Notes: a model not told the origin generated them from the sequence alone. A DNA stretch of 33,457 nt from Stramenopiles sp. TOSAG23-6 (GCA_900128565.1 LT635954.1:1-33457); one strand, 5' to 3'. Shown: positions 1-32,347, counted from the first letter of the stretch. Numbers and translations are program-made.

Positions 1-61
1 ACGAAATTTTGTACCTAACAAAAATTAAGTTTTTTTTTTGAAATATTTTTCCAAAATACAT
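1..61 (+). other. 3' part of non-canonical intron (sirtuin)
   Basis: acgaaattttGTACCTAAC (11-19)…ttgaaatatttttccaaaatacat, then sirtuin coding sequence. Near-identical to the 3' half of intron 7354..7450. Exact end uncertain (57-62). Confidence 0.75.
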
Positions 62-62
62 T

Positions 63-1110
63 TGTGGTGGACTAATCAAACCAGATATTACATTTTTTGG
101 TGAGAATATTCCAAAACAGGTTGCAAATCTTCTGACCAAAGATCGAAGCAAAGCTGATCTTTTACTTGTGATGGGCACTTCACTTCAAGTAGCTCCAATG
201 TTAGTTTTCATCATGAATTTCAAATTTATTTTTTTTTACTATGAAAATTTTGTACCTAATGAATTTCAAACTATACACATACTATCCAAAAAAATATGAG
301 TTCTGTGTTGGGTTTTTTACCTGGTCATGTTCCTCAAATTCTCATTAACTTGAAACCTATAAAGATCGAAAAGCAACATAAAAGTGATGGATTTGACGTT
401 GAACTATTAGGAGAAAGTGATTCTATCATTCAAGTATGTTTCAATTTCGAATTTCGATTTTTTTTTTGAAATTTTTTTTTTAAATATTTTTTTGAAATTT
501 TTTTTTCCTAGAACATTTTATACCTAACGACTTTTTTTTGTCAAATATTTCTTCACAAGACGTTATTTAGTGAAACGATTACACGATGACGAAAATTCTA
601 GATTAAACAATAAAAAAAATAAATCAAAAAAGAAAATCATTCAATGGACTCTTCCAGAATCACTTCATTGTCAACGCACTGAAAATATTAACGTACCAAT
701 TCGACTGTCGGAGAGGCGGTTTGGCTTGTTTGTTGTCCACTTTACTTTCAAATTTATTTTCTTTTGTACCAAATTTCGTACCTAACGGAATGTGGTTTTT
801 GAATATTTTTTCACGATATTTCTTTTCAGGTACCAATGAAATGCTTTATAGAGAATCCATGAATAATAATGATAGTAATAATAATGTTGTAGTTGAAGAC
901 AAATCTGTATGTTTTGATTATAAGTGTGACTCATGTGGGAAGACTATTTGTATAAAAAGATCTAGTTGTACTATTTGTTTTGATTTTGATTTGTGTATTG
1001 ATTGTGCTCTGAATGGAGAAGCAGAGGCGCATACAAAAGAATTTAGTGACAAAAATACATCAACCAATGATGAGAAATATTTTCATGTTTTTCATCAATT
1101 TTCTATATGA
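63..1110 (+). CDS. Class I sirtuin (Sir2/SIRT1-like NAD-dependent deacetylase), 5'-partial, with C-terminal ZZ-type zinc finger; exons ~63..199, 298..433, 564..723, 821..1110
   Basis: Manual translation gives CGGLIKPDITFFGE…ADLLLVMGTSLQVAP|MSSVLGFLPGHVPQILIN…FDVELLGESDSIIQ|YLVKRL, matching Sir2 motifs KPDITFFGE, GTSLxVxP, VPQxLIN and LLGxxD. The last exon has CDSC…CTICFDFDLCIDC…H (ZZ pattern). Confidence 0.9.
200..297 (+). other. Non-canonical intron GT…AT (98 nt), sirtuin
   Basis: gttagt…gtacctaat(252-260)…aaaatat. Removal gives QVAPMSSVLGFLPGHVPQ, with the same 8-residue P-to-P spacing as Sir2/SIRT1. The GAG at 298-300 would give one residue fewer. Confidence 0.8.
434..563 (+). other. Non-canonical intron GT…GT (130 nt), sirtuin
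   Basis: gtatgt…tacctaac(521-528)…agacgt. Removal gives GESDSIIQYLVKRL, colinear with SIRT1 GDCDVIINELCHRL. The AGs at 559 and 570 are out of frame with donor 434. Confidence 0.72.
724..820 (+). other. Intron of the same family (~97 nt), boundaries ambiguous (GC…TT, GC…AT at 817, GC…AG at 829, or 719..815 GT…CG)
   Basis: Frame changes between ORF 570..785 and ORF 721..1110; gtacctaac at 778-786. The 724..820 splice yields RFVFSG, resembling SIRT1 RYIFHG. Confidence 0.6.
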
Positions 1111-1161
1111 ACATAAATAAGCATCTTTAATTCTTTATAATAAAATGTTACAATATTTATT

Positions 1162-3165
1162 TTAAATCTTTTGATATTCTTCATATAAAATCTTATCTGA
1201 ATAAGACAGGGATGTTCCAATGACGCCAGGAATTCGATGAGCCGGTGATAATCGTTTCAAATCCCAATATTTCATACCAAATTCCTTACCTAAAAAATGT
1301 TTCTCTCTTTGATCTCCACATTTTAGTCCATCCTCGTTAATAGCGACTGGAATATAATTTTCAAGAATTTTGATACACGAAATACAACAAATACAAGGTA
1401 TAAAATATGAACGAAAACTTTCTATACCTAATTCTATACTTAATTGTGGATTTTGTACATACTTTTGTTCTGGGTCTATTGTACTGACACCACTTGGCAA
1501 ATTCGAAATTGATTTTTCTTTGCATAAGTATGCAACATACCCAAAACCACTGGATACTTTTTTCTTACACATAGGACAACAATCTAAACAATTTACAGCT
1601 TTTTCTTCAATATCTAAAACACATTCTTTTGTTACTCGAGTAAATGGTCCTGTCAATACAATTTGTGTACTACATTTCTCAAAATCTTCATTTGTTCCAT
1701 TCATTGAAAGCATATACATCAATTCTTGAGCTTTTTGTGTTGTTTCTACATTATTTAATTTTTGTTTTTCAACTGTTTTATCATTATTACAATTATTATT
1801 CTCCACTATTTTACAATTCATTTGACTTGTATCAGATAATTCATTGTATCCTGGAATACCCATAAGACGAAACATAGTACCACTCAAGCAGTAGGAAATC
1901 TTCATATTATGTGTAACTGCATTTCTTAAGTCATTCGACATTATGTCAGATGTTTCGATAAAAGAATCTAAATCTTTCTGAGTTTGAGTAATAATGTTTT
2001 GACAAATCTGTATTGCACGATTACAGTCAATTATTTGATGACGTGCATCCCATCCTTGTGCCACAGCCGCATGATATGACTTCAAAGCATTTTTAAATCT
2101 ACGCAATGCAGTCATAATATAATTACTCCCATTACGAGAATGCATATACCCTGAAAAGTGAACGGCAGGAACCTTGAGCACGTTTGGTAACTTTGGTGGA
2201 TCTATTAAACAATTCCACATTGTTTGACAGAGCATAGCACTATTGAAGTTAAGTGCAGCCCATTCGAAACAATGAGATGTACGATATGGCTTTAATATCT
2301 TTAGCAAATCTTCAAAACGAGAACTGGCCTCAGTAAATGCAAGATTAGTCTCTAGGGAACGGAGATGATTAAGTCGTTGAACTTCCATAGAGAGTGCAGA
2401 TAAAATACACTCTACTGATGACGGGATATTGTTCACAATTGTATTGGTATTCTCTTTTTCTATAGGTTTGTCGTTTTGTAAAACTGTTGACGGGATATTG
2501 TTCACAATTGTATTGTTATTCTCTTTTTCTATAGTTTTGTCATTTTTAATACCATTGGAACTATGAGAAGGAACCTCTACACTATCACTAACACTGTCAA
2601 TACGTTTAGTCATCTTTGGTGGAACCGTGTCCTCATCAATTTTAGCAATCGCAGCTGCAACAGCTTCTTCATTTGATGATCCAGAAGCAAGCGCATCATG
2701 GGCTGCCTGCATACCTAGACGTAAGGACACTTCTGGGGAAATAGCTGCTGTGCACTTGGAATCTTTTGATGAAGATTTGACAGGAACTGGTTGTAAAGCT
2801 TCAAAAGCTTCAATCGTAGCGGCTGCAGCGGCGGCAGCTGCCTTTTCTTTAGTTTTCCCGCCTGCCAAGGCTATCCTACCCGCAGCAAGACCAGCATTTT
2901 TAGCTTTTTCAATCACTTCATTACTACATAATTGTGCTTGCCTATTTCCACTTTGAACCGCGGATTTCTTTCTTGCTGCCTGACAAGCTCTTTTGTGAAA
3001 CTTCCATATCTTCATCTGACACGCTCGACCACAAAAGTGTACGAGACGACAGCCAGAGCACCGAAGGAGATTTGCCTTTGTTACACCACACGCAAGACAC
3101 TTTCTAACCACTCGTAATACATCATTTGTCTTATTCAAAGATTGAGAATCACAAGCCACTGTCAT
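1162..3165 (-). CDS. MYND-type zinc finger protein (667 aa)
   Basis: N-terminal CLAC…CSGCRLVHFCGRACQMKIWKFHKRAC fits the zf-MYND consensus; long uninterrupted ORF. Confidence 0.85.
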   Translation of the reverse strand: MTVACDSQSLNKTNDVLRVVRKCLACGVTKANLLRCSGCRLVHFCGRACQMKIWKFHKRACQAARKKSAVQSGNRQAQLCSNEVIEKAKNAGLAAGRIALAGGKTKEKAAAAAAAATIEAFEALQPVPVKSSSKDSKCTAAISPEVSLRLGMQAAHDALASGSSNEEAVAAAIAKIDEDTVPPKMTKRIDSVSDSVEVPSHSSNGIKNDKTIEKENNNTIVNNIPSTVLQNDKPIEKENTNTIVNNIPSSVECILSALSMEVQRLNHLRSLETNLAFTEASSRFEDLLKILKPYRTSHCFEWAALNFNSAMLCQTMWNCLIDPPKLPNVLKVPAVHFSGYMHSRNGSNYIMTALRRFKNALKSYHAAVAQGWDARHQIIDCNRAIQICQNIITQTQKDLDSFIETSDIMSNDLRNAVTHNMKISYCLSGTMFRLMGIPGYNELSDTSQMNCKIVENNNCNNDKTVEKQKLNNVETTQKAQELMYMLSMNGTNEDFEKCSTQIVLTGPFTRVTKECVLDIEEKAVNCLDCCPMCKKKVSSGFGYVAYLCKEKSISNLPSGVSTIDPEQKYVQNPQLSIELGIESFRSYFIPCICCISCIKILENYIPVAINEDGLKCGDQREKHFLGKEFGMKYWDLKRLSPAHRIPGVIGTSLSYSDKILYEEYQKI
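2419..2547 (-). repeat. 69-bp (23 aa) coding tandem duplication in MYND gene
   Basis: tgacgggatattgttcacaattgtattg at 2419 and 2488; encodes NDKxIEKENxNTIVNNIPS twice. Confidence 0.85.
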
Positions 3166-3496
3166 TATACTAAAACTAACCAGTAATAATAAACACGTAG
3201 TTATATCAGGTCCTCTGGTGGTAAGGCCTACTACTATAATACCCTTTTGGAAGAGACTACTAGCTACACGGGATGGTATACTGGTACAGTGTACGAGTTC
3301 GTTTGATTGATGATGATGGATGTTTGGCTTTTTTTTTGGGTTGAACTTGAACTTGACCCCACGAAATCGAAATCGCCCATTTTTTTGCGGCCGTTAAAAA
3401 AAGATCCACTACTGGTGAAATAATCTACCTAGTCAGTTAAAGAAAACTTTTCAAGAATTGCAAAGCTTCTTGCAGTATACATTACACAGGGCTTCA

Positions 3497-4831
3497 ATGG
3501 TAATTGTATCAAAAATGAATGTCTTTCTTTGTCTCGCATTGGTTGTGATGTGCTATTCTGCCGATACTGCCGATTTGGTATTTAGGGTTGTACCAACAGG
3601 ATTTGTTGTAAGTGGGCCCACCGCAGAACAACAAAAGGAAATCACCAAGGACAACATTATGACTCCCGGGAGCCGAATGCACCAATGGAAATTTATTGAT
3701 AAACCAAGGATTGAGGCAGACTTTTTAGAGCCAGTACCATTATCTGGAAAGAAGCTGTATAGATCATGCGACAAATTTGGTGCTTATCCTGAAGGGAAAC
3801 GTGATTTTGAAATTTTGACTGGAGAAACCACCCGAAACGACGTTTACATTGTTCCCTTTCTTGATAACCGGGTAAAAGTGCAGGAGCTTTACTGCCGCTC
3901 CAAAGCTACAAGAAGTAATCCAAAAGTCTCGGTGTATGAATATACAGGTAAAGACGGAAAGAGACTCTTCAACTTCTCAAACGAATTGGCAAAGGAATTA
4001 TGGAACTATCAAGAGACTGAAAAAGGACCGTTTATTTTTCGTGCTTTTTTGAGTGGTGCTTTTGGTTATAAAAATGGTCATGGACAAGTGCAAAGAAGTA
4101 CACATCATAGTCCTTCGAAAAAATATTTAAAGAATGAAAGGCATGGTGACCCGCTGTTTTATATTTGGATGTGGCACAATTTGCATGAGTTCTACGATGG
4201 CTTTGTAACTGAGCAGTCGAACTGTGGAGCAAAAGAGTATGTCATATTTGCGCAGCTTTCTCCGCGTAAAGCAAATAAAGGTGGAACAATTTCTTTTGAA
4301 ATTCCATTAGATGATAAGTATGAATTCGAAGTTGACAGATACGTAGAACGAGGCGATAAAGGTGGAGCGGGGCGTCATGGTCTAAGATTTGGTGGAGTAC
4401 ATCCTAGACCACTCTTGCGTAAGCCACCTACCGCGAGTTCGGCTCTATTTGGACAGCCGTCAGACAGATCTGCAAGCCTATTTGAAGGTGGAGCAATGTC
4501 ATCCTCATCTGCAGGCCGATCTGCAAGTGGAGGACGTCGTAGACCACGCTTGCCCTTGGTTAAGCGTAAACGTGATGAAGTGGAGCCTGATTGGAAAAGG
4601 TCGGACGATCGTGCACGTGGTATTGCGAGTATGGCAGCTTTTAATCCACCATCACCATCAGAAGAACGGGGAAGTCTTGCATCTGCGCCTGAGCTGTCTT
4701 CTCCATGGTCATCTGAGCAACTTCCTCAAGCTTTATCTGGTGCTAGTACATTTGCTGAATCTATGGCATCATCTACAACTGCAGCATCTCGTCCAATGAC
4801 TCCGCCTGATGGCGGGTGGAGCACCCCATGA
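3497..4831 (+). CDS. Hypothetical, probably secreted protein with Ser/Arg/Pro-rich disordered C-terminus (start ATG 3497 or 3515)
   Basis: Long ORF; hydrophobic signal-like MNVFLCLALVVMCYSA; no family recognised. Confidence 0.7.
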   Translation: MVIVSKMNVFLCLALVVMCYSADTADLVFRVVPTGFVVSGPTAEQQKEITKDNIMTPGSRMHQWKFIDKPRIEADFLEPVPLSGKKLYRSCDKFGAYPEGKRDFEILTGETTRNDVYIVPFLDNRVKVQELYCRSKATRSNPKVSVYEYTGKDGKRLFNFSNELAKELWNYQETEKGPFIFRAFLSGAFGYKNGHGQVQRSTHHSPSKKYLKNERHGDPLFYIWMWHNLHEFYDGFVTEQSNCGAKEYVIFAQLSPRKANKGGTISFEIPLDDKYEFEVDRYVERGDKGGAGRHGLRFGGVHPRPLLRKPPTASSALFGQPSDRSASLFEGGAMSSSSAGRSASGGRRRPRLPLVKRKRDEVEPDWKRSDDRARGIASMAAFNPPSPSEERGSLASAPELSSPWSSEQLPQALSGASTFAESMASSTTAASRPMTPPDGGWSTP

Positions 4832-4967
4832 AATTCGCAAGAGTTTTGGTTGTAAATTATAACAATGGGAAGACTAAAAAAACAAACTTTTGAATATATA
4901 TAAACATTTTTTTTATAAAATTTTCATACTCGTGGATTATATAATATATTTTATATGATATATCTAA

Positions 4968-5181
4968 ATTTTGAGAAATCTTCAAAGAAAGTGTATTCAT
5001 TAATATATATAGCTATAGTACTATGATAATGTATGTGATTAATATCAACGATTGTAATACACTACAACATGTCATTATTCTAAGAAAGAATCATGATTTC
5101 AAAAAATTATTACATCATATGAACAATTTTTATAAATTTCCAACAAATTTCAAATTTAATCATTTTTTAGTAGTACCGGGT
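4968..5181 (+). repeat. ~210-bp AT-rich direct repeat, copy 1
   Basis: attttgagaaatcttcaaagaaagtg…tttaatcattttttagtagtaccgggt; highly similar to 5955..6176. Confidence 0.92.
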
Positions 5182-5293
5182 AATATTATTCTGATTTTCA
5201 AATTGTGTTTCACCAGCGTCTCACCAGCTCGAGGTCGGTCTGACAAGCAAAAAGTGTTACTAGTAGTACGTACCCTACGACTACTTTCATAAA

Positions 5294-5800
5294 ATGGTAA
5301 AAATTAATAAGATTGCAGCAAAAAAGAAGACTGTACGGCGTACAACCCCTTACCGGTTAGGCCGTATGCGCGCGCGGGCAATGCGGGCACTCCGGGTTCC
5401 AAAAAAAGGATGGGCCGCCTTACATTATGCTGTATATGGCGGTCATGTTGAAGTAGTTGGACTACTTCTTGGTAAAGGTGCTAATGTCAATCAGGCTGAT
5501 GAATTGGGAAGAACCCCATTGTGGATTGCTTCAGCGAATGGTCGTGTGGGAGTAGTTGAAAAACTCCTCAAAGTAAAGGGAATTAAGATAAATCAGACTA
5601 ATCCTAATTTCGGAATTAATCCATTGTATGCTGCTTCACTGAATGGTCATCCAGAAGTAGTTCGACTACTTCTTGAGAATGGTGCTAATGTCAATCATGT
5701 TGATGAAGACGGGCGCACCCCATTGTGGATTGCTTCAGCGAGTGGTCATGCTGAAGTAGTTGGGCAACTTATTGCTGCTGGTGCAGATGTCAATAAATAA
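5294..5800 (+). CDS. Ankyrin-repeat protein (4 repeats), C-terminally truncated, possibly decaying
   Basis: G-x-T/A-P/A-L-H/W/Y…G-H-x-E-V-V-x-x-L-L-x-x-G-A-x-V-N repeats; a fifth repeat continues out of frame after the stop. Confidence 0.85.
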   Translation: MVKINKIAAKKKTVRRTTPYRLGRMRARAMRALRVPKKGWAALHYAVYGGHVEVVGLLLGKGANVNQADELGRTPLWIASANGRVGVVEKLLKVKGIKINQTNPNFGINPLYAASLNGHPEVVRLLLENGANVNHVDEDGRTPLWIASASGHAEVVGQLIAAGADVNK

Positions 5801-5954
5801 GGCTGACAATGACGGAAATACCCCATTGTATATTGGTATATATTGCTTGCAAAAAAAGGCAGAAGAATGAAAGTTTGATATAGGATTGAATGTTTTTAAT
5901 TTAGAATTTGACGCTATTCTTTAAATAAAAACACCATCAATCTTCAAATTTTTG

Positions 5955-6176
5955 ATTTTGAGAAATCTTCAAAGAAAGTGATTAATTAATATATATAGCT
6001 ATAGTACTATGATAATGTGTATCATTTATATCAACGATTGTAATACACTACAACATGTCATTATTCTAAGAAAATATCATTATTTCAAATAAATTATTAT
6101 GTCATATGAACAATTTTTATAAATTTCCAACAAATTTCAAATTTAATCATTTTTTAGTAGGTATAGGGTACCGGGT
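5955..6176 (+). repeat. ~210-bp AT-rich direct repeat, copy 2
   Basis: Similar to 4968..5181 and also ends in gtaccgggt. Confidence 0.92.
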
Positions 6177-6275
6177 GAACGAAAAAAAATAACTGACATT
6201 AAAACGGACAAACGGATACTCGAGCTTCAAGGCTACTACAAATACTAAAAAAGATTTTTAGTTACAAAAGCCAGA

Positions 6276-7755
6276 ATGTCTGCTCCCAGAGGTCCCCGAT
6301 TCAACTTTGGTTCTGCATCTGATCGAGATAGTATAGTATATGGCTGCTGTGAACCTGGGTTTAAACATCCCGAGGTAGGTACACCAAGGACTCCGAGGAC
6401 TGCTCCAACAAATTTGAGTTCTGTCGAGACCTGGGCTTCATTTATGAAAAGTGCAAAAATATCTCGAGTAATTGTCCTGCTTACTCCGGAAGAATATTCT
6501 TTCTTTGAAACATCATTGTTATCAACATATAGAGAACATTTTAGTACTGTCATTCGTGTGGCACCGTATACAGAAGGATCGCTTGAAGGTTTACTAAGAG
6601 CCTTCAGTGACGCCGAAGAAGCAGGAGAAAAAGTTGTCGTCCACTGCGCAACTGGCCAAGGAAGAACCGCAGATGCATTGGCTCTATGGTTACACCATCG
6701 ATATAATCTTAGTGTAAGTGATGCCGTGGAAGAAATATCGCTTCATGCTAAAAAAATACGTACTTTAAGACGACCGACTGTCAGTGGTTTATTGAAGATT
6801 CTTGAACCAAATTTACGACCGCCTCAAATGGGTCAAAATTTGTTGAGAAATTCGCATTCAGAGTACGGTATGCTGACATCACGCAGTGCATATAGTGGAA
6901 TGACTCCAAGATTACCTATAGCTACACCACTCTCATCATCAGATTCATTGGTATCTTCTGAAGATACGAAAAAAGTTGATAAAAACCAATTTCACGTTAC
7001 ATTAATTCAAATGGGAGGGACTATTGACAAAATGTATCCAGTGGGTGATGGTAGCGAACCTAATGGTGGTGCAAAAGCTATGATTGGCGATTCTGCTACA
7101 GCACGATTATTTGCGTTACTTCCAATTGGATTTACGTATGACGTCATTTCCCTATGTCGTCGGTCAGGTACTGCAAAAAACGAAGATTTAAATCGTTTAG
7201 TTAGAATATGTAGTATCGCAGAATCCAACAAGATTCTTGTGACACACAGTGAAGAAGGAATGGTTCAAACAGCACAATATTTACGACAGAACATTTTAGC
7301 AGCAGGTAAACATGGTGCGCTTTCAAAGAAAACAATTGTTTTCACTGGTGCATGTATGTTTTTTTTTTTTTTTCAAATTCCAAATTTGTTTTTCGTACGA
7401 AATTTTGTACCTAACAATAATTTTTTTTGAAATATTTTTCCAAAATATATTTATTCCAGAAGTCTACAAAGCCTCTGATGCTGATTTTAATGTTGGTGTT
7501 TCTGTTGGTGCATTGAATGTTTTAAAACGTGGCGTTTTTATTTGTATGAATGGTCGAGTATTTGAGTCTTCAAGATGTCAAAGAATAGAAAAAACTGGAT
7601 TTTTCACTTCTATTCCAGGTCAAAAACGAGTACCTAGTCATATAAACAAATCATCTATACCAAGTATCACTGACAAAGGCTTAAAATCTCCAAAGAAATC
7701 TACGAAAAAGCTTCAGACCAAACCACCTCCTACAATACCACATTCAAGAGGGTAA
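6276..7755 (+). CDS. Fusion of a Cys-based (CX5R) protein-tyrosine/dual-specificity phosphatase domain and an asparaginase-like domain; exons 6276..7353, 7451..7755 (460 aa)
   Basis: VVVHCATGQGRT P-loop, followed by asparaginase N-domain motifs MGGTIDK, ILVTH, IVFTGA|FIP…SDADFNVG…GVFICMNG, restored by splicing. Confidence 0.85.
7354..7450 (+). other. Non-canonical intron GT…AT (97 nt)
   Basis: gtatgt…gtacctaac(7407-7415)…caaaatatat. Removal restores TGAFIP (asparaginase TGAxxP). The nearest CAG (7459) would create an in-frame TAA. Confidence 0.88.
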
Positions 7756-7831
7756 AAGTTTTGCAGATATAATATAATATAATATAAAATAAACCGATAT
7801 TTTTTCTTTATTTGTTTTTTTTGAATCAAAG

Positions 7832-8689
7832 TCATTTCCAAGATAAACTTTTACTATCAATAACAGAAATTCCCGCTTCAGTTGCAAACGATAAAAACTC
7901 CTGAGCATTAGCTTCAAACCCAGATACAGGTGATTGACAATCTTCAAGTAAGAATATATCACGTAATCGTTCTTTTGGCCAACGAGGAACCATATCCCGA
8001 ACTGTAAAATTTACACAATGGCTCATGGCCTGTCCACAAACTAACACACGATTTGCACGAAGAAGTCGAGCAAGAAGCTTTTCATCGTAAAAGGTACGTG
8101 GGTCTGAATCAACAGGAACATCTGCTCTAAATGCACTGTAACATTCAGTTAACATATTGTTTCCTTTTATAAAGTAATGAACTGTTCGACTTTCTTTTTC
8201 TGCCTGCTTCACCCACTTGTCAAGGGCATCATTGATTGAGTCTACAACATTGTGACCACGTGTACCGATGAGACAATGCTCAGGCCAAATACAAAGCTTA
8301 AAACGACCTTGCTTTTCCAACTCTTGACAATATTTCAGCCCCCAGGTCTTGTGAGAGGGATTTCTAGTAGTCCATTTTCCCGAAGTAATATCTTCTGAGG
8401 TAATGATTGTAAATGGTTCAGGAGATGCTCCAGTAGCAGTACTCACCCAAAATCCAGGATGTGCAATGTGCATAGCTTCATGTGTATCCAGAGTTATAAT
8501 AATATCGTTGATTTTATCGCCGTGTGTTGCGATCATGTCAGCAATTCGCGAAGCATCGGCGTCTGCAGTTTCTATGGCTAGCGAGCCACCTGGATGGAAA
8601 TCTACTTGAGGATCAATGATAAACAATGTGGTTCCACCAGACTCGGGAAGCGTGGGAGTGCCATAAAAGTCTGTGCTAGGTGCCTCCAT
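7832..8689 (-). CDS. Nicotinamidase/isochorismatase-family cysteine hydrolase (PncA/Pnc1-like)
   Basis: IIDPQVDF…GSL…LDTH…WPEHC…KG…YSAF…GQAMSHCV contain the Asp/Lys/Cys triad and metal-ligand motifs; first ATG at 8689. Confidence 0.85.
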   Translation of the reverse strand: MEAPSTDFYGTPTLPESGGTTLFIIDPQVDFHPGGSLAIETADADASRIADMIATHGDKINDIIITLDTHEAMHIAHPGFWVSTATGASPEPFTIITSEDITSGKWTTRNPSHKTWGLKYCQELEKQGRFKLCIWPEHCLIGTRGHNVVDSINDALDKWVKQAEKESRTVHYFIKGNNMLTECYSAFRADVPVDSDPRTFYDEKLLARLLRANRVLVCGQAMSHCVNFTVRDMVPRWPKERLRDIFLLEDCQSPVSGFEANAQEFLSFATEAGISVIDSKSLSWK

Positions 8690-8891
8690 TGTCGGTAAGT
8701 TTTGTTCTAGTGTCAAAAAAAACAAAGCTTAATGGATAGATTGCGTCTTCTTGAAGGCTTTTAGTAATATTCTTCTTAAACTTTACTTTACATGACGAGT
8801 GAAGAAGGCGTGAAGAAGCTGCGAGGTGTCAAATTTGACCCGAACCGAGATGATTGATTGGTGCAGTTACCGGGTACCCGGTTATCTGAAA

Positions 8892-10364
8892 ATGGTTCCG
8901 GGGTTTTCAAATGCAATTAATATTTGCAACTCAATTCCGAAAATGACTCCTTCGATTGATGCCGAAAGGCAAGCAGTACTCGATGCCAAAGCAAAATTAC
9001 AACATGCTCAGCAGCAGCTGAAACTGGCCAAAGATCGTATGCAGCAACTAGAACCAGCATGGACGACTGGTTATACTTTTCACCACCTGATGGAGCTGGT
9101 CGATCCATACTCAGAGAGTTTTTGCTATGCACTGCAAGAAGCGCAAAAGTTGATGGATGAAAAAGGGAAAGCACATGCTATCCTTTCTTTAATAAAGCGA
9201 AATGAAGATGTACTTTTTTTCAGAGAAGTAATAAAAGAGTTAGTGAGGTTCAAAGATCCCGAAATAACCAAACCATTTTGGAATCACAAAGAAGAACCAT
9301 ACTTTACCGAACCATACTTTACCGTCGATTTCTTGCAGGAGCAGGCCAATATTTTGATCGCGGCGTTTCCCCACAGCCAAGCTCAGGGACTTGACAAAAT
9401 CGAAGCTCTCTCTCTCCAGAAGCATGGAAATGAAGAAATTTTTAAGCAGACAATTATTAAGATATTGGAAAGTTATTTTGAGGTGGGAGATGAGTACATC
9501 TTAAACAACGAATTGATAGAAGCGGCCATAGGGGCTTCGGAAAAACTAAGGACGACATGTCGATTGTATGGTTATGCAGAGTCGAAACTGCAGGACGCAG
9601 CTGATAGAGCAGCCGTTGCTGCAGCCAGAGCTGCCAGAGCTGCACCTGCCATTGATTTTACGATGGAGATTAGGTGGGCTAATATGGAAGGACCTATAGA
9701 AATATACCCATTTACCACTGCCGTTGATGCTGCACGTTTCATACACGCAGTGATTGAACGATATTGTGACACAAGTTTTGACCGTGATCGGCCGCCACTA
9801 GGACCACGAGGTAATTATGACTACTATACATGCATTTGTGGGGGGTATGGAACAGTTCGTCAAAAAAATCAAGCTGGTGGTGGTTGGAAGGAAATTAATG
9901 CAGCCTTTGAAGCACTAAAAGGCACATTAGATACACCAAAAGATAAACTGTTATTGCGTTTATGGTTAGAGCGATTAAAAGACGAGTCTTGGGAAAAGTG
10001 GGACAAGGAAAGACATCTCGAAGAAGTAGAAGAACAAGAACAGCAGGAGGCAGACGATGCACTGAAGGAGGTATGTAAAAGTGATAGTATTAGTACACTA
10101 CTGGCTGCAATCAAGATAGCTGAGGAGAAAGGTATCGTGAGTGAGTCATGTCTAGAAAGCGCTAACGAGTGCTTGGAGTACTTGCAAGAGCAGGAGGCAG
10201 ACGATGCACTGAAGGAGGTATGTAAAAGTGATAGTATTAGTACACTACTGGCTGCAATCAAGATAGCTGAGGAGAAAGGTATCGTGAGTGACTCATGTCT
10301 AGAAAGCGCTAACGAGTGCTTGGAGGACTTGCAGGAAGCGGAGCAAAATAAGAAAAACCATTGA
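8892..10364 (+). CDS. Hypothetical helical protein with 49-aa C-terminal tandem duplication (start uncertain: 8850/8892/8943)
   Basis: Long ORF with coiled-coil-like segments; no family recognised. Confidence 0.72.
   Translation: MVPGFSNAINICNSIPKMTPSIDAERQAVLDAKAKLQHAQQQLKLAKDRMQQLEPAWTTGYTFHHLMELVDPYSESFCYALQEAQKLMDEKGKAHAILSLIKRNEDVLFFREVIKELVRFKDPEITKPFWNHKEEPYFTEPYFTVDFLQEQANILIAAFPHSQAQGLDKIEALSLQKHGNEEIFKQTIIKILESYFEVGDEYILNNELIEAAIGASEKLRTTCRLYGYAESKLQDAADRAAVAAARAARAAPAIDFTMEIRWANMEGPIEIYPFTTAVDAARFIHAVIERYCDTSFDRDRPPLGPRGNYDYYTCICGGYGTVRQKNQAGGGWKEINAAFEALKGTLDTPKDKLLLRLWLERLKDESWEKWDKERHLEEVEEQEQQEADDALKEVCKSDSISTLLAAIKIAEEKGIVSESCLESANECLEYLQEQEADDALKEVCKSDSISTLLAAIKIAEEKGIVSDSCLESANECLEDLQEAEQNKKNH
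10042..10333 (+). repeat. 147-bp near-perfect coding tandem repeat (2 copies)
   Basis: gcaggaggcagacgatgcac at 10043 and 10190; encodes QEADDALKEVCKSDSISTLLAAIKIAEEKGIVS… twice. Confidence 0.93.
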
Positions 10365-10431
10365 AAATTGGAATCCCACCATATATTGAGGGGGAAACAT
10401 AACAGCACTGGCTAAATAAAAAAAATTCCAT

Positions 10432-11472
10432 TTATTTTTCCCATGCCTTTTTTGCAATATTTAATACTTCATCTTTAATATATCCATTGTCTTCTGCAGC
10501 ACATTCCGGCATTAGTCCTGAAGATGTTCCATTCATCTCTAATATAAATTCCTTCCCTGTTTCTTCACAGTGTATAGCATCAACTGTTACAATAGTAAGT
10601 CCACCAAAACATTTCGCAGCTTCATCCACCCATAATTTATATCTTTCATTCATTTCAATCTCTTCAATAACACTTGCTCCTACATTCGTCTTCCAGTTTC
10701 CAGAGACAGATCGACGCTGAAATACTCTATAATGACATTTGGAGTCATCCAGACCAATTCTTTGAATACGTAAATCAAACGCACCATTTATAAAAGGCTC
10801 TACAGTACAATATTGATTTGTTGTTGCCAGGATTGATTTTACATCATCAAATCGATTTTTATTTTCTATCTTGATTTTACCATAACCCGCTTGGCCATGA
10901 CCAATTTTGCAAACTACCGGGAAGTCCTCCCACCACATCATGTTACCATGATTTTCATAATACGATTGAGGAATTACTGGGAAGACATCCTCTCCCAATC
11001 TGCTTCGAATTGTTAGAAGAGACGCATGGCTGATAGGTCGCTCGCAAAACATAATAATTGATTCCCAACTATTTAGCGAAGGAACTTGCGAATACATGAA
11101 CCCATATAAAATTTTCCGCCAATCCGTACCTGCACCAACGCCTCTCACTTCGTTTCTTACGAGAACAAAATCGGGTTTAATAAGTTTACGCGAATCGAAG
11201 CGTGGACCATTCTTTGAGCGTACACGAATATGTACAAGCACAGAAGGTGATGCGCCTTTCTCACAGCTTGATGTTAGACTAATGTCAGACCAACCGCACT
11301 GTTCTATAATAATTTCATGATTTTTACCACTAACCATCAAAGTACGCGACGAAGCAAAAATTGCTATCCAATTTGTTTCACCACCATCGATTACAAGAAT
11401 CGTTTTTTTTGGTAAACACGGCGAAGGTGGATTCGAAGGTGCAGGTGACTTTGAGAGCATTCTTTTCAACAT
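10432..11472 (-). CDS. Synapsin-like ATP-grasp protein (synapsin C domain)
   Basis: ILVID, KPDFVLVR, PSLNS, FPVVCKIGHGQAGYGKIK, EPFI…DLRIQRIG, RRSVSGNWKTNVG and RYKLWVDE…FGGL all match the synapsin C domain. Confidence 0.9.
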   Translation of the reverse strand: MLKRMLSKSPAPSNPPSPCLPKKTILVIDGGETNWIAIFASSRTLMVSGKNHEIIIEQCGWSDISLTSSCEKGASPSVLVHIRVRSKNGPRFDSRKLIKPDFVLVRNEVRGVGAGTDWRKILYGFMYSQVPSLNSWESIIMFCERPISHASLLTIRSRLGEDVFPVIPQSYYENHGNMMWWEDFPVVCKIGHGQAGYGKIKIENKNRFDDVKSILATTNQYCTVEPFINGAFDLRIQRIGLDDSKCHYRVFQRRSVSGNWKTNVGASVIEEIEMNERYKLWVDEAAKCFGGLTIVTVDAIHCEETGKEFILEMNGTSSGLMPECAAEDNGYIKDEVLNIAKKAWEK

Positions 11473-11769
11473 TTGTAGGTGAACGAAGAAGGTTGGTGAA
11501 GGACTCCGGCTCGACCTTCAAAATATTTTTCGTTGACTTCAAGCGAGTCTCACACAACAATATAAATAGTGAGTTAGTAACTGTTGTCCTATTCGCGACT
11601 GACGCGCTGTCATTTTTTGACTCATTTTTTTTTTTGACTCATTTTGATTCCGAAAGTCAAAAAAGAGGAGCGAGCTTCGTATCTACGACAACAACAATCA
11701 TAATGGATAAATGAATTTAAATCACTGGAGATACGACGCCAGGAGTTTATTTCTTGGGGTATAGGTAAT

Positions 11770-14020
11770 ATGATTGATACATCGAAGTTTTCAGTGCAAC
11801 AACTGAAGAACCAGTTGAAAAAGTATAATCTTGAGGTGGACGATACAACAGATGTAGAAGAAACTTTGGTTCGCGACTCCTTAGAACGTAAACTTCAAGA
11901 AGTACTCACACGCAGTGCAGAACCATACAAGTGGTTTACGTGTCAAGCTTTAGGAGATTTCCGACCTACTCTTCGCGAAACCGTAGGTGCGTGTGTACAT
12001 AAGGATACCTTGTACGTTTTTGGAGGATACTCAAATGGAAGGCGTCTGAATACTTTAGAAATGTATAATTTCAAAGAGAGAAAATGGAAAAAAGTAAAAT
12101 CCAAAGGAACACCACCAAAAGAACGTAGTTGGGTTTCTACTGTAGTGTATAAAGATGAGTGTATTATTGCCTTTGGAGGTCTTGGTGAAAACAGTTGTTT
12201 TTCAGATGTTCACAAATTTACTTTTGCCAACCAAACCTGGACTGAAGTGACATGTACGTTTTCATCATTCCTTTTCAATTTATTTTTTTATACCAAATTT
12301 CGTACCTAACGAATTTCAAATTGTTGAAATTGTTTTTTACAATGCATGTACAGGTTGTGTACCCGAAGAAAGGTCAAAAGTTGATGCATGTATTGTTGGT
12401 GATATATTATATATCTACGGGGGTAAGAATTGGGATGAAATTGCATTAACGGACCTTTATCAACTTGATCTCTCGGCAACTCCTGAACCAATTTGGACAA
12501 AATTGGAACTGTTGGGAAACGGTCCGAATCGAGCAATAAATAACGTTGATGGACTAATCCATCAAATGTTTTATAATGGACATCTTGTTGTTTTCTGGAA
12601 TGGTGTCATTTTTTTTCTACATCTAGAAACCAAAACTTGGCGTCGAAAAATAACGTTTGGAAAGTCACCAAAGTGTATGTTCTATTTTTTTTCAATTTTG
12701 ATTTTTTTTCATACGAAATGTTGTACTTAACGATTTTTTTTTGAAATACTTTTCTAAAATACATGTAAAAGCAGACCAAATGGTACAGGAATTGTGCTAC
12801 ACAACAACAATTTATTAGTATTTCAGTCAGGTGAAACAAATCTAGATACTCAGTCTGAACCACCATACGCGATATTTTCAGTAGTTAATGTTCTAAATAC
12901 GTTTTCATCATTCACTTCATTTTTATTTTTGTAAAGAAACATTTTGTACCTAACAAATGTTTGTACTTGAAATATTTTTTCACAGCATCTATTTAAAAAC
13001 ATTTGAATGGAAAACAGTGAAAACTTCCAGGTATCCTACATCTAGGCTTGGTGCTTCTTGTGTTGTGTATAATGATTGCCTATATTGTTTTGGTGGTTCT
13101 GTTCGTTGTCCTGATACAAACTGGGAAAAGAATCATCATGTACATTTTCAAAATTAAATATAAAAGTTACTTTTTTTGTACCAAAACTTGTACCTAACAT
13201 TTTTTTTGAAGCAAAAAACAATTCTTTCACAATACATGTTGCTACCGATAGCATAGGTGGTTATGCTTATTTAGGTGATTTAAATGGAATGACGCTCGAA
13301 AAGTCAGATTTATCTACACCATATTCGAAATTTGTTCATAATAGGGAATACTGTGACGCTATATTTATTTGTCAAACCCAAAGGTTTTACACGCACAAAA
13401 TAGTTCTTGCGTCTCACAGTGAATATTTTAAAGGATTATTTTCTTTCCCGAGAACTTGGAAATACGATCTTAAGCAGAATTTTGATGGGCAATGTGACAG
13501 TGATGTGGGTAAAGATGTGTACGATGTCAGCGAAGTAACTCCCGAGACGTTTCTTGCTATACTGCAACATTGTTATGATTGCCTTGATTTTGAAGAAACA
13601 GAAATTGATGCCTTGGAACTATTAGAATTTGCGGACAAATATATGTTGTCATCTTTGAAAGATACATGTATTTCACTAATTGCACAAAATTTAGACTGTG
13701 ATAACGTACTTGCAGTATTAACATTGACACAAGGGCGAAATATGAGAGGATTAGCATTGTTGTGCACAAGTTACATCTCCAAACATTTTCAAGATGTTGT
13801 ATCAACACCTGCATTTATAGATTTATGCCAAACGCAACCTCATTTAGTGCAAAACTTATGCAAATATAACACAGCGACAACACTACGGGACAAACGAAAA
13901 GCTCTACTGTCGACAGATATAGATGTAGATATAATTAACTTTAGCCCGGATAAAAATAATAAATTGATTGAAGTATCTGAAAGTTCTCAAAATAAAATGA
14001 AAAAGAGGCGCGCCACATAA
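11770..14020 (+). CDS. Kelch-repeat + BTB/POZ(-BACK) protein (LZTR1-like order) with possible N-terminal SAP-like motif; exons 11770..12253, 12348..12674, 12765..12896, 12991..13139, 13238..14020 (~624 aa)
   Basis: Kelch motifs LYVFGG, IIAFGG, LYIYGG, LYCFGG and GxxPxxR; BTB motifs HKIVLASHSEYFKGLF and ELLEFADKYML. The exons join in frame after removal of four family introns. Confidence 0.88.
12254..12347 (+). other. Non-canonical intron GT…AT (94 nt)
   Basis: gtacgt…gtacctaac(12302-12310)…aatgcat. Gives EVTCTGCVPEER, keeping the kelch GxxPxxR. CATGTAC is repeated at both junctions. An in-frame CAG at 12353 is an alternative. Confidence 0.78.
12675..12764 (+). other. Non-canonical intron GT…AT (90 nt)
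   Basis: gtatgt…gtacttaac(12723-12731)…aaatacat; contains an in-frame TAA. The AGs at 12771 and 12774 are out of frame with this donor. Confidence 0.78.
12897..12990 (+). other. Family intron (~94 nt), best read AT…CT; alternatives 12901..12988 GT…AT or 12901..12985 GT…AG
   Basis: atacgttttcatcattc matches the donor gtacgttttcatcattc of 12254; gtacctaac at 12946-12954. The 12897..12990 splice gives kelch-like VLNLKTFEWK. Confidence 0.62.
13140..13237 (+). other. Non-canonical intron GT…AT (98 nt)
   Basis: gtacat…gtacctaac(13190-13198)…caatacat; phase-0 join to the BTB frame. The downstream AGs (13251, 13256, 13274) are all out of phase. Confidence 0.82.
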
Positions 14021-20255: not shown

Positions 20256-21688
20256 AAATGTTAGGTACAAGTTTTGGTACAAAAAAAGTAACTTTTATAT
20301 TTAATTTTGAAAATGTACATGATGATTCTTTTCCCAGTTTGTATCAGGACAACGAACAGAACCACCAAAACAATATAGGCAATCATTATACACAACACAA
20401 GAAGCACCAAGCCTAGATGTAGGATACCTGGAAGTTTTCACTGTTTTCCATTCAAATGTTTTTAAATAGATGCTGTGAAAAAATATTTCAAGTACAAACA
20501 TTTGTTAGGTACAAAATGTTTCTTTACAAAAATAAAAATGAAGTGAATGATGAAAACGTATTTAGAACATTAACTACTGAAAATATCGCGTATGGTGGTT
20601 CAGACTGAGTATCTAGATTTGTTTCACCTGACTGAAATACTAATAAATTGTTGTTGTGTAGCACAATTCCTGTACCATTTGGTCTGCTTTTACATGTATT
20701 TTAGAAAAGTATTTCAAAAAAAAATCGTTAAGTACAACATTTCGTATGAAAAAAAATCAAAATTGAAAAAAAATAGAACATACACTTTGGTGACTTTCCA
20801 AACGTTATTTTTCGACGCCAAGTTTTGGTTTCTAGATGTAGAAAAAAAATGACACCATTCCAGAAAACAACAAGATGTCCATTATAAAACATTTGATGGA
20901 TTAGTCCATCAACGTTATTTATTGCTCGATTCGGACCGTTTCCCAACAGTTCCAATTTTGTCCAAATTGGTTCAGGAGTTGCCGAGAGATCAAGTTGATA
21001 AAGGTCCGTTAATGCAATTTCATCCCAATTCTTACCCCCGTAGATATATAATATATCACCAACAATACATGCATCAACTTTTGACCTTTCTTCGGGTACA
21101 CAACCTGTACATGCATTGTAAAAAACAATTTCAACAATTTGAAATTCGTTAGGTACGAAATTTGGTATAAAAAAATAAATTGAAAAGGAATGATGAAAAC
21201 GTACATGTCACTTCAGTCCAGGTTTGGTTGGCAAAAGTAAATTTGTGAACATCTGAAAAACAACTGTTTTCACCAAGACCTCCAAAGGCAATAATACACT
21301 CATCTTTATACACTACAGTAGAAACCCAACTACGTTCTTTTGGTGGTGTTCCTTTGGATTTTACTTTTTTCCATTTTCTCTCTTTGAAATTATACATTTC
21401 TAAAGTATTCAGACGCCTTCCATTTGAGTATCCTCCAAAAACGTACAAGGTATCCTTATGTACACACGCACCTACGGTTTCGCGAAGAGTAGGTCGGAAA
21501 TCTCCTAAAGCTTGACACGTAAACCACTTGTATGGTTCTGCACTGCGTGTGAGTACTTCTTGAAGTTTACGTTCTAAGGAGTCGCGAACCAAAGTTTCTT
21601 CTACATCTGTTGTATCGTCCACCTCAAGATTATACTTTTTCAACTGGTTCTTCAGTTGTTGCACTGAAAACTTCGATGTATCAATCAT
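20256..21688 (-). pseudogene. Mirror copy of Kelch gene, truncated inside intron 4 (lacks BTB exon)
   Basis: Reverse complement of 11770..13202; introns mirrored at 21111..21204, 20694..20783, 20468..20561 and 20256..20318 (partial). Confidence 0.8.
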
Positions 21689-21985
21689 ATTACCTATACC
21701 CCAAGAAATAAACTCCTGGCGTCGTATCTCCAGTGATTTAAATTCATTTATCCATTATGATTGTTGTTGTCGTAGATACGAAGCTCGCTCCTCTTTTTTG
21801 ACTTTCGGAATCAAAATGAGTCAAAAAAAAAAATGAGTCAAAAAATGACAGCGCGTCAGTCGCGAATAGGACAACAGTTACTAACTCACTATTTATATTG
21901 TTGTGTGAGACTCGCTTGAAGTCAACGAAAAATATTTTGAAGGTCGAGCCGGAGTCCTTCACCAACCTTCTTCGTTCACCTACAA

Positions 21986-23026
21986 ATGTTGAAAAGAATG
22001 CTCTCAAAGTCACCTGCACCTTCGAATCCACCTTCGCCGTGTTTACCAAAAAAAACGATTCTTGTAATCGATGGTGGTGAAACAAATTGGATAGCAATTT
22101 TTGCTTCGTCGCGTACTTTGATGGTTAGTGGTAAAAATCATGAAATTATTATAGAACAGTGCGGTTGGTCTGACATTAGTCTAACATCAAGCTGTGAGAA
22201 AGGCGCATCACCTTCTGTGCTTGTACATATTCGTGTACGCTCAAAGAATGGTCCACGCTTCGATTCGCGTAAACTTATTAAACCCGATTTTGTTCTCGTA
22301 AGAAACGAAGTGAGAGGCGTTGGTGCAGGTACGGATTGGCGGAAAATTTTATATGGGTTCATGTATTCGCAAGTTCCTTCGCTAAATAGTTGGGAATCAA
22401 TTATTATGTTTTGCGAGCGACCTATCAGCCATGCGTCTCTTCTAACAATTCGAAGCAGATTGGGAGAGGATGTCTTCCCAGTAATTCCTCAATCGTATTA
22501 TGAAAATCATGGTAACATGATGTGGTGGGAGGACTTCCCGGTAGTTTGCAAAATTGGTCATGGCCAAGCGGGTTATGGTAAAATCAAGATAGAAAATAAA
22601 AATCGATTTGATGATGTAAAATCAATCCTGGCAACAACAAATCAATATTGTACTGTAGAGCCTTTTATAAATGGTGCGTTTGATTTACGTATTCAAAGAA
22701 TTGGTCTGGATGACTCCAAATGTCATTATAGAGTATTTCAGCGTCGATCTGTCTCTGGAAACTGGAAGACGAATGTAGGAGCAAGTGTTATTGAAGAGAT
22801 TGAAATGAATGAAAGATATAAATTATGGGTGGATGAAGCTGCGAAATGTTTTGGTGGACTTACTATTGTAACAGTTGATGCTATACACTGTGAAGAAACA
22901 GGGAAGGAATTTATATTAGAGATGAATGGAACATCTTCAGGACTAATGCCGGAATGTGCTGCAGAAGACAATGGATATATTAAAGATGAAGTATTAAATA
23001 TTGCAAAAAAGGCATGGGAAAAATAA
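21986..23026 (+). CDS. Synapsin-like ATP-grasp protein (mirror copy)
   Basis: Identical translation to 10432..11472. Confidence 0.88.
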   Translation: MLKRMLSKSPAPSNPPSPCLPKKTILVIDGGETNWIAIFASSRTLMVSGKNHEIIIEQCGWSDISLTSSCEKGASPSVLVHIRVRSKNGPRFDSRKLIKPDFVLVRNEVRGVGAGTDWRKILYGFMYSQVPSLNSWESIIMFCERPISHASLLTIRSRLGEDVFPVIPQSYYENHGNMMWWEDFPVVCKIGHGQAGYGKIKIENKNRFDDVKSILATTNQYCTVEPFINGAFDLRIQRIGLDDSKCHYRVFQRRSVSGNWKTNVGASVIEEIEMNERYKLWVDEAAKCFGGLTIVTVDAIHCEETGKEFILEMNGTSSGLMPECAAEDNGYIKDEVLNIAKKAWEK

Positions 23027-23093
23027 ATGGAATTTTTTTTATTTAGCCAGTGCTGTTATGTTTCCCCCTCAATATATGGTGGGATTCCAATTT

Positions 23094-24566
23094 TCAATGG
23101 TTTTTCTTATTTTGCTCCGCTTCCTGCAAGTCCTCCAAGCACTCGTTAGCGCTTTCTAGACATGAGTCACTCACGATACCTTTCTCCTCAGCTATCTTGA
23201 TTGCAGCCAGTAGTGTACTAATACTATCACTTTTACATACCTCCTTCAGTGCATCGTCTGCCTCCTGCTCTTGCAAGTACTCCAAGCACTCGTTAGCGCT
23301 TTCTAGACATGACTCACTCACGATACCTTTCTCCTCAGCTATCTTGATTGCAGCCAGTAGTGTACTAATACTATCACTTTTACATACCTCCTTCAGTGCA
23401 TCGTCTGCCTCCTGCTGTTCTTGTTCTTCTACTTCTTCGAGATGTCTTTCCTTGTCCCACTTTTCCCAAGACTCGTCTTTTAATCGCTCTAACCATAAAC
23501 GCAATAACAGTTTATCTTTTGGTGTATCTAATGTGCCTTTTAGTGCTTCAAAGGCTGCATTAATTTCCTTCCAACCACCACCAGCTTGATTTTTTTGACG
23601 AACTGTTCCATACCCCCCACAAATGCATGTATAGTAGTCATAATTACCTCGTGGTCCTAGTGGCGGCCGATCACGGTCAAAACTTGTGTCACAATATCGT
23701 TCAATCACTGCGTGTATGAAACGTGCAGCATCAACGGCAGTGGTAAATGGGTATATTTCTATAGGTCCTTCCATATTAGCCCACCTAATCTCCATCGTAA
23801 AATCAATGGCAGGTGCAGCTCTGGCAGCTCTGGCTGCAGCAACGGCTGCTCTATCAGCTGCGTCCTGCAGTTTCGACTCTGCATAACCATACAATCGACA
23901 TGTCGTCCTTAGTTTTTCCGAAGCCCCTATGGCCGCTTCTATCAATTCGTTGTTTAAGATGTACTCATCTCCCACCTCAAAATAACTTTCCAATATCTTA
24001 ATAATTGTCTGCTTAAAAATTTCTTCATTTCCATGCTTCTGGAGAGAGAGAGCTTCGATTTTGTCAAGTCCCTGAGCTTGGCTGTGGGGAAACGCCGCGA
24101 TCAAAATATTGGCCTGCTCCTGCAAGAAATCGACGGTAAAGTATGGTTCGGTAAAGTATGGTTCTTCTTTGTGATTCCAAAATGGTTTGGTTATTTCGGG
24201 ATCTTTGAACCTCACTAACTCTTTTATTACTTCTCTGAAAAAAAGTACATCTTCATTTCGCTTTATTAAAGAAAGGATAGCATGTGCTTTCCCTTTTTCA
24301 TCCATCAACTTTTGCGCTTCTTGCAGTGCATAGCAAAAACTCTCTGAGTATGGATCGACCAGCTCCATCAGGTGGTGAAAAGTATAACCAGTCGTCCATG
24401 CTGGTTCTAGTTGCTGCATACGATCTTTGGCCAGTTTCAGCTGCTGCTGAGCATGTTGTAATTTTGCTTTGGCATCGAGTACTGCTTGCCTTTCGGCATC
24501 AATCGAAGGAGTCATTTTCGGAATTGAGTTGCAAATATTAATTGCATTTGAAAACCCCGGAACCAT
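23094..24566 (-). CDS. Hypothetical helical protein (mirror copy)
   Basis: Mirror of 8892..10364. Confidence 0.7.
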   Translation of the reverse strand: MVPGFSNAINICNSIPKMTPSIDAERQAVLDAKAKLQHAQQQLKLAKDRMQQLEPAWTTGYTFHHLMELVDPYSESFCYALQEAQKLMDEKGKAHAILSLIKRNEDVLFFREVIKELVRFKDPEITKPFWNHKEEPYFTEPYFTVDFLQEQANILIAAFPHSQAQGLDKIEALSLQKHGNEEIFKQTIIKILESYFEVGDEYILNNELIEAAIGASEKLRTTCRLYGYAESKLQDAADRAAVAAARAARAAPAIDFTMEIRWANMEGPIEIYPFTTAVDAARFIHAVIERYCDTSFDRDRPPLGPRGNYDYYTCICGGYGTVRQKNQAGGGWKEINAAFEALKGTLDTPKDKLLLRLWLERLKDESWEKWDKERHLEEVEEQEQQEADDALKEVCKSDSISTLLAAIKIAEEKGIVSESCLESANECLEYLQEQEADDALKEVCKSDSISTLLAAIKIAEEKGIVSDSCLESANECLEDLQEAEQNKKNH

Positions 24567-25626: not shown

Positions 25627-25702
25627 CTTTGATTCAAAAAAAACAAATAAAGAAAAAATATCGGTTTATTTTATATTATATTATATTATATCTGCAAAAC
25701 TT

Positions 25703-32296: not shown

Positions 32297-32347
32297 AATA
32301 AATATTGTAACATTTTATTATAAAGAATTAAAGATGCTTATTTATGT

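Follow-up and report, generated by a model that had tools for sequence, protein, structure and literature searches.

The stretch of DNA analysed here (the window: 33,457 nucleotides (nt), LT635954.1:1-33457 in assembly GCA_900128565.1, from Stramenopiles sp. TOSAG23-6) carries three plus-strand genes that are interrupted by short AT-rich segments, namely a sirtuin gene, a fusion of a dual-specificity phosphatase with an L-asparaginase-like domain, and a kelch-BTB gene. A first-pass annotation of the window had described eight complete interruptions and a partial one at 1-61 in these three unrelated genes, and all of them were located again on the plus strand (Table 1). As the window is mirrored and every intron is present twice, they count as nine independent introns and not as 18. 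Judged from their sequence and from homologous proteins, they are probably genuine nuclear introns of a single introner-like family, which would be spliced at a non-AG 3' site, GT...YNT and mostly GT...YAT (Y, pyrimidine).

Table 1. Family introns, genes and the inverted copy in the window, with the outcome of the junction tests against homologous proteins.
Feature	Position	Strand	Length	Ends or remarks	Rank of family junction	Family junction compared with GT-AG readings
3' part of family intron, sirtuin gene, cut by window edge	1..61	+		ends ...AATACAT
Family intron, sirtuin core	200..297	+	98 nt	GTTAGT...TAT, ATG at both borders	1 of 596 distinct products	against GT-AG 200-300: 49 better, 25 worse, 2 equal (76 homologues)
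Family intron, sirtuin core	434..563	+	130 nt	GTATGT...CGT	1 of 564 distinct products	against GT-AG 438-570: 41 better, 18 worse, 17 equal
Family intron, sirtuin linker	728..821	+	94 nt	GTTTGT...TTT, nhmmer envelope E 2.4e-17		linker without homologue coverage; GC-AG 724-829 possible
Family intron, asparaginase part	7354..7450	+	97 nt	GTATGT...TAT	1 (tied), products of 1002 stop-free candidates	better than each of three GT-AG options in 11/11
Family intron, kelch-BTB gene	12254..12347	+	94 nt	GTACGT...CAT, CATGTAC at both borders	1 (tied) of 575 distinct products	better than GT-AG in 2/2 orthologues
Family intron, kelch-BTB gene	12675..12764	+	90 nt	GTATGT...CAT	20, products of 630 stop-free candidates	GT-AG 12673-12771 better in 2/2
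Family intron, kelch-BTB gene	12897..12990	+	94 nt	ATACGT...TCT; equally 12899-12992, AC...AT	2, products of 1040 candidates	better than GT-AG 12901-12985 and GT-AT 12901-12988 in 2/2
Family intron between kelch and BTB parts	13140..13237	+	98 nt	GTACAT...CAT, CATGT at both borders	uninformative (variable linker)	no stop-free GT/GC-AG pair within 25/30 nt
Sirtuin fragment	1-1110	+		hosts family introns
MYND-finger protein	1162-3393	-
Ankyrin protein	left arm			flanked by ~180-nt repeat segments
Dual-specificity phosphatase fused to L-asparaginase-like domain	6267-7755	+
Isochorismatase-like protein		-
Arm-repeat protein				overlaps repeat 10042-10333
Synapsin-domain protein	10435-11517	-		Pfam Synapsin_C, E 1e-58
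Kelch-BTB/BACK protein	11770-14020	+
Cysteine-rich open reading frame	14110-16899	-	929 residues
Inverted copy of 1-13202	20256..33457	-		mirrored introns, e.g. 26008-26104, 21111-21204

To judge by their alignment, the interruptions are not independent of each other, they are copies of one repeated family of about 95 nt, with pairwise identities of 56-81% and a mean of 64% over seven copies. An nhmmer profile built from these seven copies found nine plus-strand copies in 1-20253 (E 2.4e-17 to 3.2e-07), all of them inside plus-strand genes, and no antisense or intergenic copy in the same range. The earlier statement that every intron found belongs to a non-AG class agrees with this result, as profile and alignment place every intron of the window in the same family. 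The partial copy at the window edge is recognised with an E value of 1.9e-07 over model positions 42-94 and contains GTACCTAAC at 11-19, while the exon that follows it reads CGGLIKPDITFFGE and matches SIRT2 chains. The extra length of intron 434 is due to an internal tandem duplication at 459-519. The third sirtuin intron, first placed at about 724-820, is present as described, and its borders are better set at 728-821 by alignment to the other copies; both placements are in frame, and homologues do not span the sirtuin linker. Outside the window, the family was sought by motif patterns in viral contigs (two patterns; one chance match, then none), in metagenome contigs (no match) and in prokaryote genome contigs (none, then 17 matches), and none of the 19 loci from these scans matches the family model at E<=1e-3, so that all are chance matches. 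Diverged copies that keep a nearly invariant branch box, as described below, suggest long selection as introns.

In consensus, the family reads CAT|GTAYGTTTTCATCAT...TTTGTACCTAAC...TTGAAATATTTTTYCAMAATAYAT|. The donors and 3' ends reported earlier for the introns at 200, 434, 7354, 12254, 12675, 12897 and 13140, as well as the final CAT of the partial copy, were read again with the same outcome. The 5' end is GTAYGT-like, with T at +2 and +6 in all eight complete copies and G at +1 and at +5 in seven of them, copy 12897 being the sole one without G at +1. The 3' end takes the form Y-N-T: T at -1, a pyrimidine at -3 and A at -9 are present in all nine copies, A at -2 in six, and positions -7, -6 and -4 are mostly A. 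On the exon side of the donor, C, A and T are found at -3, -2 and -1 in five, six and six of the eight complete copies, respectively (each P about 0.01 against coding composition), which bears out the CAT that had been noticed there, and the three 3' junctions said to read CAT|GT do so at 12347, 12764 and 13237.

A branch-like box, (G)TACCTAAC, is exact in six of the nine copies and has one mismatch in the other three, with the predicted branch A lying 34-40 nt before the 3' end in complete copies and 43 nt before it in the partial one. Allowing at most one mismatch, 22 occurrences of GTACCTAAC were counted, where 4.2 are expected and none of 100 shuffles gave more than 11; 18 of the 22 fall in the nine introns and their mirrored counterparts. 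Both the 5' end (GT in seven of eight, with a hexamer compatible with U1 and U6) and the branch-site motif are therefore as in U2-type introns, and the GTAYGT end together with the TACCTAAC box constitutes a set of classical spliceosomal signals. The last two bases at the homology-supported borders, by contrast, are AT in six cases and GT, TT and CT in one each, where U2 introns have AG. Two further descriptions of the ends were rejected: shifting the borders to give AT-AC termini is possible for intron 13140 only, and a rule by which the first YAT after the branch is used fails as intron 7354 already contains a TAT further upstream.

The first-pass annotation had proposed alignment of the spliced proteins with orthologues as a check. 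All donors within 25 nt and all acceptors within 30 nt of the family borders were combined, and the stop-free products were scored against homologous proteins. For the sirtuin, the 76 of 110 matches that have at least 280 residues were used and the 34 shorter ones dropped; for the asparaginase gene, seven homologues served for ranking and 11 (P0002-P0012) for pairwise comparison, with P0013-P0016 dropped as partial; for the kelch-BTB gene, P0017 and P0019 were used as the only ones among 150 listed matches to align over the whole gene, P0045 being inspected and dropped. The family junction gave the best product for four introns (200, 434, 7354 and 12254) and the second best for 12897, so that a non-AG junction is supported for five of the six testable introns, whereas intron 12675 slightly favours GT-AG. 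Removal of the family-aligned segments restores the frame in all eight complete copies and the orthologue spacing in five of six testable ones; over the six introns, the deviation from orthologue spacing is 0, 0, 0, 0, +2 and 0 residues for the family junctions and -1, -1, -4, -2, -1 and +3 for the GT-AG readings.

Single junctions are informative in detail. At intron 200, the product aligns without a gap to the yeast Sir2 and human SIRT1 chains, and in both solved chains one residue lies between the stretches matching the two exon translations (270 then 272-273 in Sir2, 2hjh; 218 then 220-225 in SIRT1, 4if6), which matches the codon split by the family junction. Joining 7353 to 7451 yields TGAFIPEVYKASDADFN, which aligns without a gap to TGAFTPEVNKDSDACFN of the 55% identical orthologue P0002, and the same junction gives TGAFIPEVYKASDA where P0002 has TGAFTPEVNKDSDA. 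The product at 12254, WTEVTCTGCVPEER, keeps a conserved G and has the W-to-R spacing of P0017, that of P0019 being one residue longer, while the product at 12897, FSVVNVLNLKTFEW, has the F-to-W spacing of 13 that is found in both kelch orthologues. At 12675, the family junction is two residues longer than both orthologues and the GT-AG product one residue shorter; homology is ambiguous here, and GT-AG is equally possible. For intron 13140, the frames of the flanking exons are fixed by the orthologue matches CFGGSV and YAYLGDL, and a wide search returned weak donors inside CFGGSV or the pair 13140-13303, which removes the conserved YAYLGDL. A search of the BTB exon against longer proteins gave no match.

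Several observations weigh against non-AG splicing of the family. Position -2 is not uniform, with A six times and G, T and C once each, and one copy starts with AT in place of GT. Near-identical transcript-derived proteins were sought in the protein searches, and none turned up. For a family of transposon-insertion origin, homology recovers the empty site whatever splicing does, which makes the junction test an indirect one, and this test is based on nine independent copies on one contig, with two orthologues for the kelch comparison. At 12675, the reading 12673-12771 is ahead by 4 score units summed over the two orthologues. Once weak donors or AGs further downstream are admitted, all eight complete introns have an in-frame GT/GC-AG reading, and AG occurs seven times inside the introns against 19.4 expected from base composition, a scarcity that could mean that AG is still read. 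These last three points also speak for a rival explanation that we regard as unlikely, in which the copies are ordinary GT/GC-AG introns whose element provides donor and branch site while the acceptor is the next usable AG inside the apparent exon. The family borders would then be insertion scars, and the proteins would carry small indels relative to their orthologues. Such a reading further gains from the first AG after the branch box, which lies 3-9 nt past the family border in five of eight introns, from the good-looking acceptors tttcttttcag at 829, ttattccag at 7459 and ttttcacag at 12985, and from direct repeats at the borders that fit an insertion origin. Before and after the branch box, AG is about equally scarce (4 and 3 AGs, respectively), and the deficit may be inherited composition. 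The 3' parts of introns 434, 12897 and 13140 do contain AGs, which would have to be skipped if the family borders were used.

Put to work on the individual introns, canonical acceptors perform badly, as had been claimed from the first inspection. With the best donor there is no AG in phase at 434, 12675 and 13140, the first AG at 7354 (7458-7459) creates a stop, t|aa, with the donor at 7354, and only at 200 and 12254 is the first AG in frame with the conserved donor, i.e. in two of eight introns, compared with eight of eight for the family border. The AG readings thought possible at 724 and 12897 exist as 724-829 (GC-AG) and 12901-12985, and together with 438-570 and 12673-12771 they represent in-frame options that use weaker donors or later AGs; for 13140, the options are confined to 13140-13303 and to donors inside the CFGGSV motif. 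GT/GC-AG products are off the orthologue spacing in conserved cores, where the family junction deviates by 0 in five of six cases. The contrast is sharpest at 7354, where each GT-AG option removes part of a TGAxxPE motif that is kept (A sometimes S or T) in all eight aligned homologues. As AG is absent throughout 7354-7457, no AG acceptor can retain the conserved I-P-E-V of the FxPEV residues. The closest database protein, P0001, which matches exon 1 of the phosphatase/asparaginase gene at 99% identity and carries the source label GSMAST32, has been modelled with a GT-AG intron 7348-7471 and loses nine residues that are present there in all aligned homologues. Moreover, the copies are old at a mean identity of 64%, and a 12-nt non-coding relic would not be expected to still encode F-I-P-E-V. 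That stretches which would be intronic under GT-AG encode orthologue-like residues in copies of this age argues that the family borders are the splice sites, too.

The borders themselves carry direct repeats of variable length, in the order of the complete copies ATG, none, TT, AT, CATGTAC, TGTA, AT and CATGT (0-7 nt). Together they amount to 25 nt, where 5.9 nt would be expected (P about 5e-5), and fit an origin by insertion or by reverse splicing. A long target-site duplication of fixed length was rejected, as most 3' exons do not begin with GTA. Border repeats of this extent, a repeated family and several insertions in the same genes would also be expected of mobile-element insertions that are never removed from decaying genes, or that are excised from the DNA like the internal eliminated sequences of ciliates. 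We consider this scarcely credible, since all exons are open and conserved over hundreds of residues, all nine copies lie in sense orientation with donor and branch signals, and genes disrupted by unremoved copies this old should have decayed. A DNA form lacking an intron was not seen, though no search aimed at one was made.

Removal by a machinery other than the spliceosome, for instance by an endonuclease and a ligase acting on a helix of the complementary termini (ATGTAT...ATACAT), has to be weighed as well and follows proposals made for hairpin-bearing non-canonical introners or for the non-conventional introns of euglenids. Between exon position -2 to intron position +4 and the last six intron bases (-6 to -1), 38 of 48 positions can pair, with 18.4 expected (ATGTAT/ATACAT), the minimum-energy folds of several copies pair both ends, and copy 7354 folds better than its shuffles with z = -4.6. 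However, ends swapped between introns pair almost equally well, with a mean of 35.6 pairs and 11% of derangements reaching 38, and the pairing thus reflects a palindrome of 6 nt in the consensus, and not covariation. RNAalifold returned no conserved end-to-end helix (-1.24 kcal/mol), and seven of eight copies fold no better than shuffled sequences, for which reason a conserved RNA structure was rejected. Set against the classical signals GTAYGT and TACCTAAC, the missing helix and the missing covariation of the ends make removal by the spliceosome the favoured route and the non-spliceosomal one very improbable.

How far a non-AG signature would extend beyond this family is a separate matter. 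The first-pass annotation had inferred a splicing system with a redefined 3' splice site, of which the non-AG junctions are supported by homology as described, and the system-wide scope is limited by the material, which is one family only. With every copy coming from a single introner-like family that has border repeats, the signature may be that of the family or of its insertion scars and not of the whole spliceosome, which is a further point on the negative side. A replacement of YAG by YNT (mostly YAT) as the 3' splice site, along with a matching CAT|GT protosplice site, throughout the organism, or throughout the whole MAST-3-type lineage, is possible and on balance doubtful; it would imply that the U2AF small subunit, second-step factors and perhaps the U1 and U2 small nuclear RNAs (snRNAs) have co-evolved.

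For the family itself, the following mechanism can be envisaged. U1 and U6 would recognise GTAYGT and U2 the TACCTAAC box with its branch A at the distance given above, and the second catalytic step would join the exons after Y-A-T in place of Y-A-G, with T as the last intron base. In canonical introns, structural work places the 3' G in contact with the 5' G and the 3' A in contact with the branch A. Here, the terminal T may form a pair with the first intron base, a purine in all eight complete copies (G in seven, A in one). The copy that begins with A has T as its last base as well, so that T could be able to pair with either purine, a thought drawn from one case. Placement of the 3' site may be aided by the conserved A-rich 3' tail and by the spacing to the branch. 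Copies of the family probably multiplied as a mobile element, or else by reverse splicing, using CAT|GT-like sites and leaving the border repeats behind.

At the level of the contig, a repeat search of the window showed that 1-13202 and 20256-33457 form a perfect inverted duplication with arms of 13202 nt that are 100% complementary and enclose a unique centre of 7,053 nt. The right arm begins at 20256, the mirror of 13202, a point within intron 13140-13237. Continuity across 13202|13203 leaves this intron and its gene intact, and 20255|20256 is therefore the odd junction. A chimera of amplification or assembly could explain the duplication, as could a genuine palindrome. The genes of the left arm and the centre are compact and eukaryotic, and an Rfam scan of 1-20300 found no RNA family. 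Taking the label GSMAST32 of P0001 as a lead only, the organism appears to be a marine heterotrophic stramenopile of the MAST-3 type. Part of the window is present in three RNA metatranscriptome runs (shares 0.07-0.14) and in five DNA runs; the runs containing it include two very small organism-labelled DNA runs as well as several seawater metagenomes and metatranscriptomes.

Some further features of the contig are worth recording. An AT-rich non-coding segment of about 180 nt occurs twice, at 4995-5173 and 5981-6160, with 92-96% identity and about 986 nt apart, one copy upstream and the other downstream of the ankyrin gene and both ending in ...CATTTTTTAGTAG; a role as promoter or terminator modules is conceivable, as is an origin as the two ends of a small unit that is duplicated or mobile. 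Within the Arm-repeat reading frame, a unit of 147 nt is present twice at 10042-10333 with 98% identity, the result of a recent internal duplication that added 49 codons in frame. The 929-residue reading frame has a signal-peptide-like start and many C-P-x-G-x-Y/F-C repeats, and a Pfam search gave no match at E<=0.01; it probably encodes a cysteine-rich repeat protein that is secreted or exposed at the surface. Directly upstream of its start on the minus strand, at 16867-16977, lie 4.9 copies of a 23-nt unit, ACTGATTTATATTAGCTAAATAT. A full synapsin-type ATP-grasp protein is encoded on this stramenopile-like contig, and the only related metagenome locus found for this neighbour (L002) belongs to an unrelated GC-rich organism with apparently ordinary GT-AG introns.

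AG at the 3' end of introns is among the most conserved signals of eukaryotic gene expression, and few lineages break it. Repeated introns of the form GT...(C/T)AT would break the rules of splicing in a new way and, in abundant uncultured grazers of the ocean, independently of other departures from GT-AG. The yeast-like donor and branch signals would render the question of 3' site choice in the second step unusually clean. If the signature were lineage-wide, standard GT-AG gene finders would systematically mis-annotate MAST-3-type genomes, and other gene sets of this organism may be affected in the way P0001 is. Literature combining MAST-3 with non-canonical introns was not found in the collection of articles searched, and for relatives (Bigyra, Opalozoa, Nanomonadea, Incisomonas, Blastocystis) none was found among the papers listed. 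The intron and splicing passages of two MAST genome papers and of one Incisomonas paper make no mention of unusual introns, and few genes are reported for MAST-3 single-cell assemblies in the available part of one such account (PMC5778133).

Compared with known systems, the family combines familiar and unfamiliar traits. U2 introns of the Saccharomyces type read GTATGT...TACTAAC...YAG. The GTAYGT end is common to both, the branch box has one extra C here (TACCTAAC), and the distance from branch to 3' end is within the yeast range, whereas the last base is T and not G, and splicing would have to pass over AGs 4-5 nt and 26 nt upstream of the predicted site. In U12-type introns, 3' ends other than AG are tolerated, the 5' motif is RTATCCTT, and the long conserved branch box ends in TAAC and is about 10-26 nt away from the 3' end. 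The present family likewise has such a long box, yet the U12 type was rejected, as RTATCCTT is absent from the GTAYGT-like 5' ends and the branch lies too far from the 3' end (34-40 nt, 43 in the partial copy). In the tunicate Fritillaria borealis, the major spliceosome reportedly removes many introns without GT-AG, with changes of U2AF proposed as the cause and with termini said to be AG-AC, AG-AT and AG-AG. That organism is an animal and these signatures are other than GT-YAT, in contrast to the stramenopile family described here.

Introner elements, reportedly the subject of work by Huff et al. in 2016, resemble the family in more respects. According to the accessible text of a 2025 survey by Gozashti and colleagues, those of Micromonas, Aureococcus and fungi are likewise copies of near-equal length that sit as sense introns in unrelated genes, have short border repeats and bring donor and branch site with them (PMC12130899). 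Many similar copies as introns in unrelated genes is also what we find, with nine copies in three genes. The present family is more diverged (mean 64%) and has no clear terminal inverted repeat or target-site duplication of fixed length. The families described there, as far as that text goes, use GT-AG or other listed splice sites, whereas this one ends in YNT, mostly YAT; families with unfamiliar splice sites were checked against transcripts in the survey, and those that failed were discarded (PMC12130899). The non-canonical introners of Amoebophrya, in the part of Farhat et al. 2021 available to us (PMC7789003), are likewise repeated, lack GT-AG, occur in a marine protist and show a transposon-like spread, and direct repeats of 3-5 nt overlap their exon/intron borders so that the exact cut cannot be placed. 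They carry hairpin-forming inverted repeats of 8-20 nt, compared with an inverted match of about 4-6 nt at consensus level in the present family, in which there is no conserved helix and one of eight copies folds better than shuffles. Finally, the same text gives no preferred terminal dinucleotides for the Amoebophrya introners (PMC7789003), whereas the family in this window begins with GT in seven of eight copies, ends in T in all nine and carries a yeast-like branch box.

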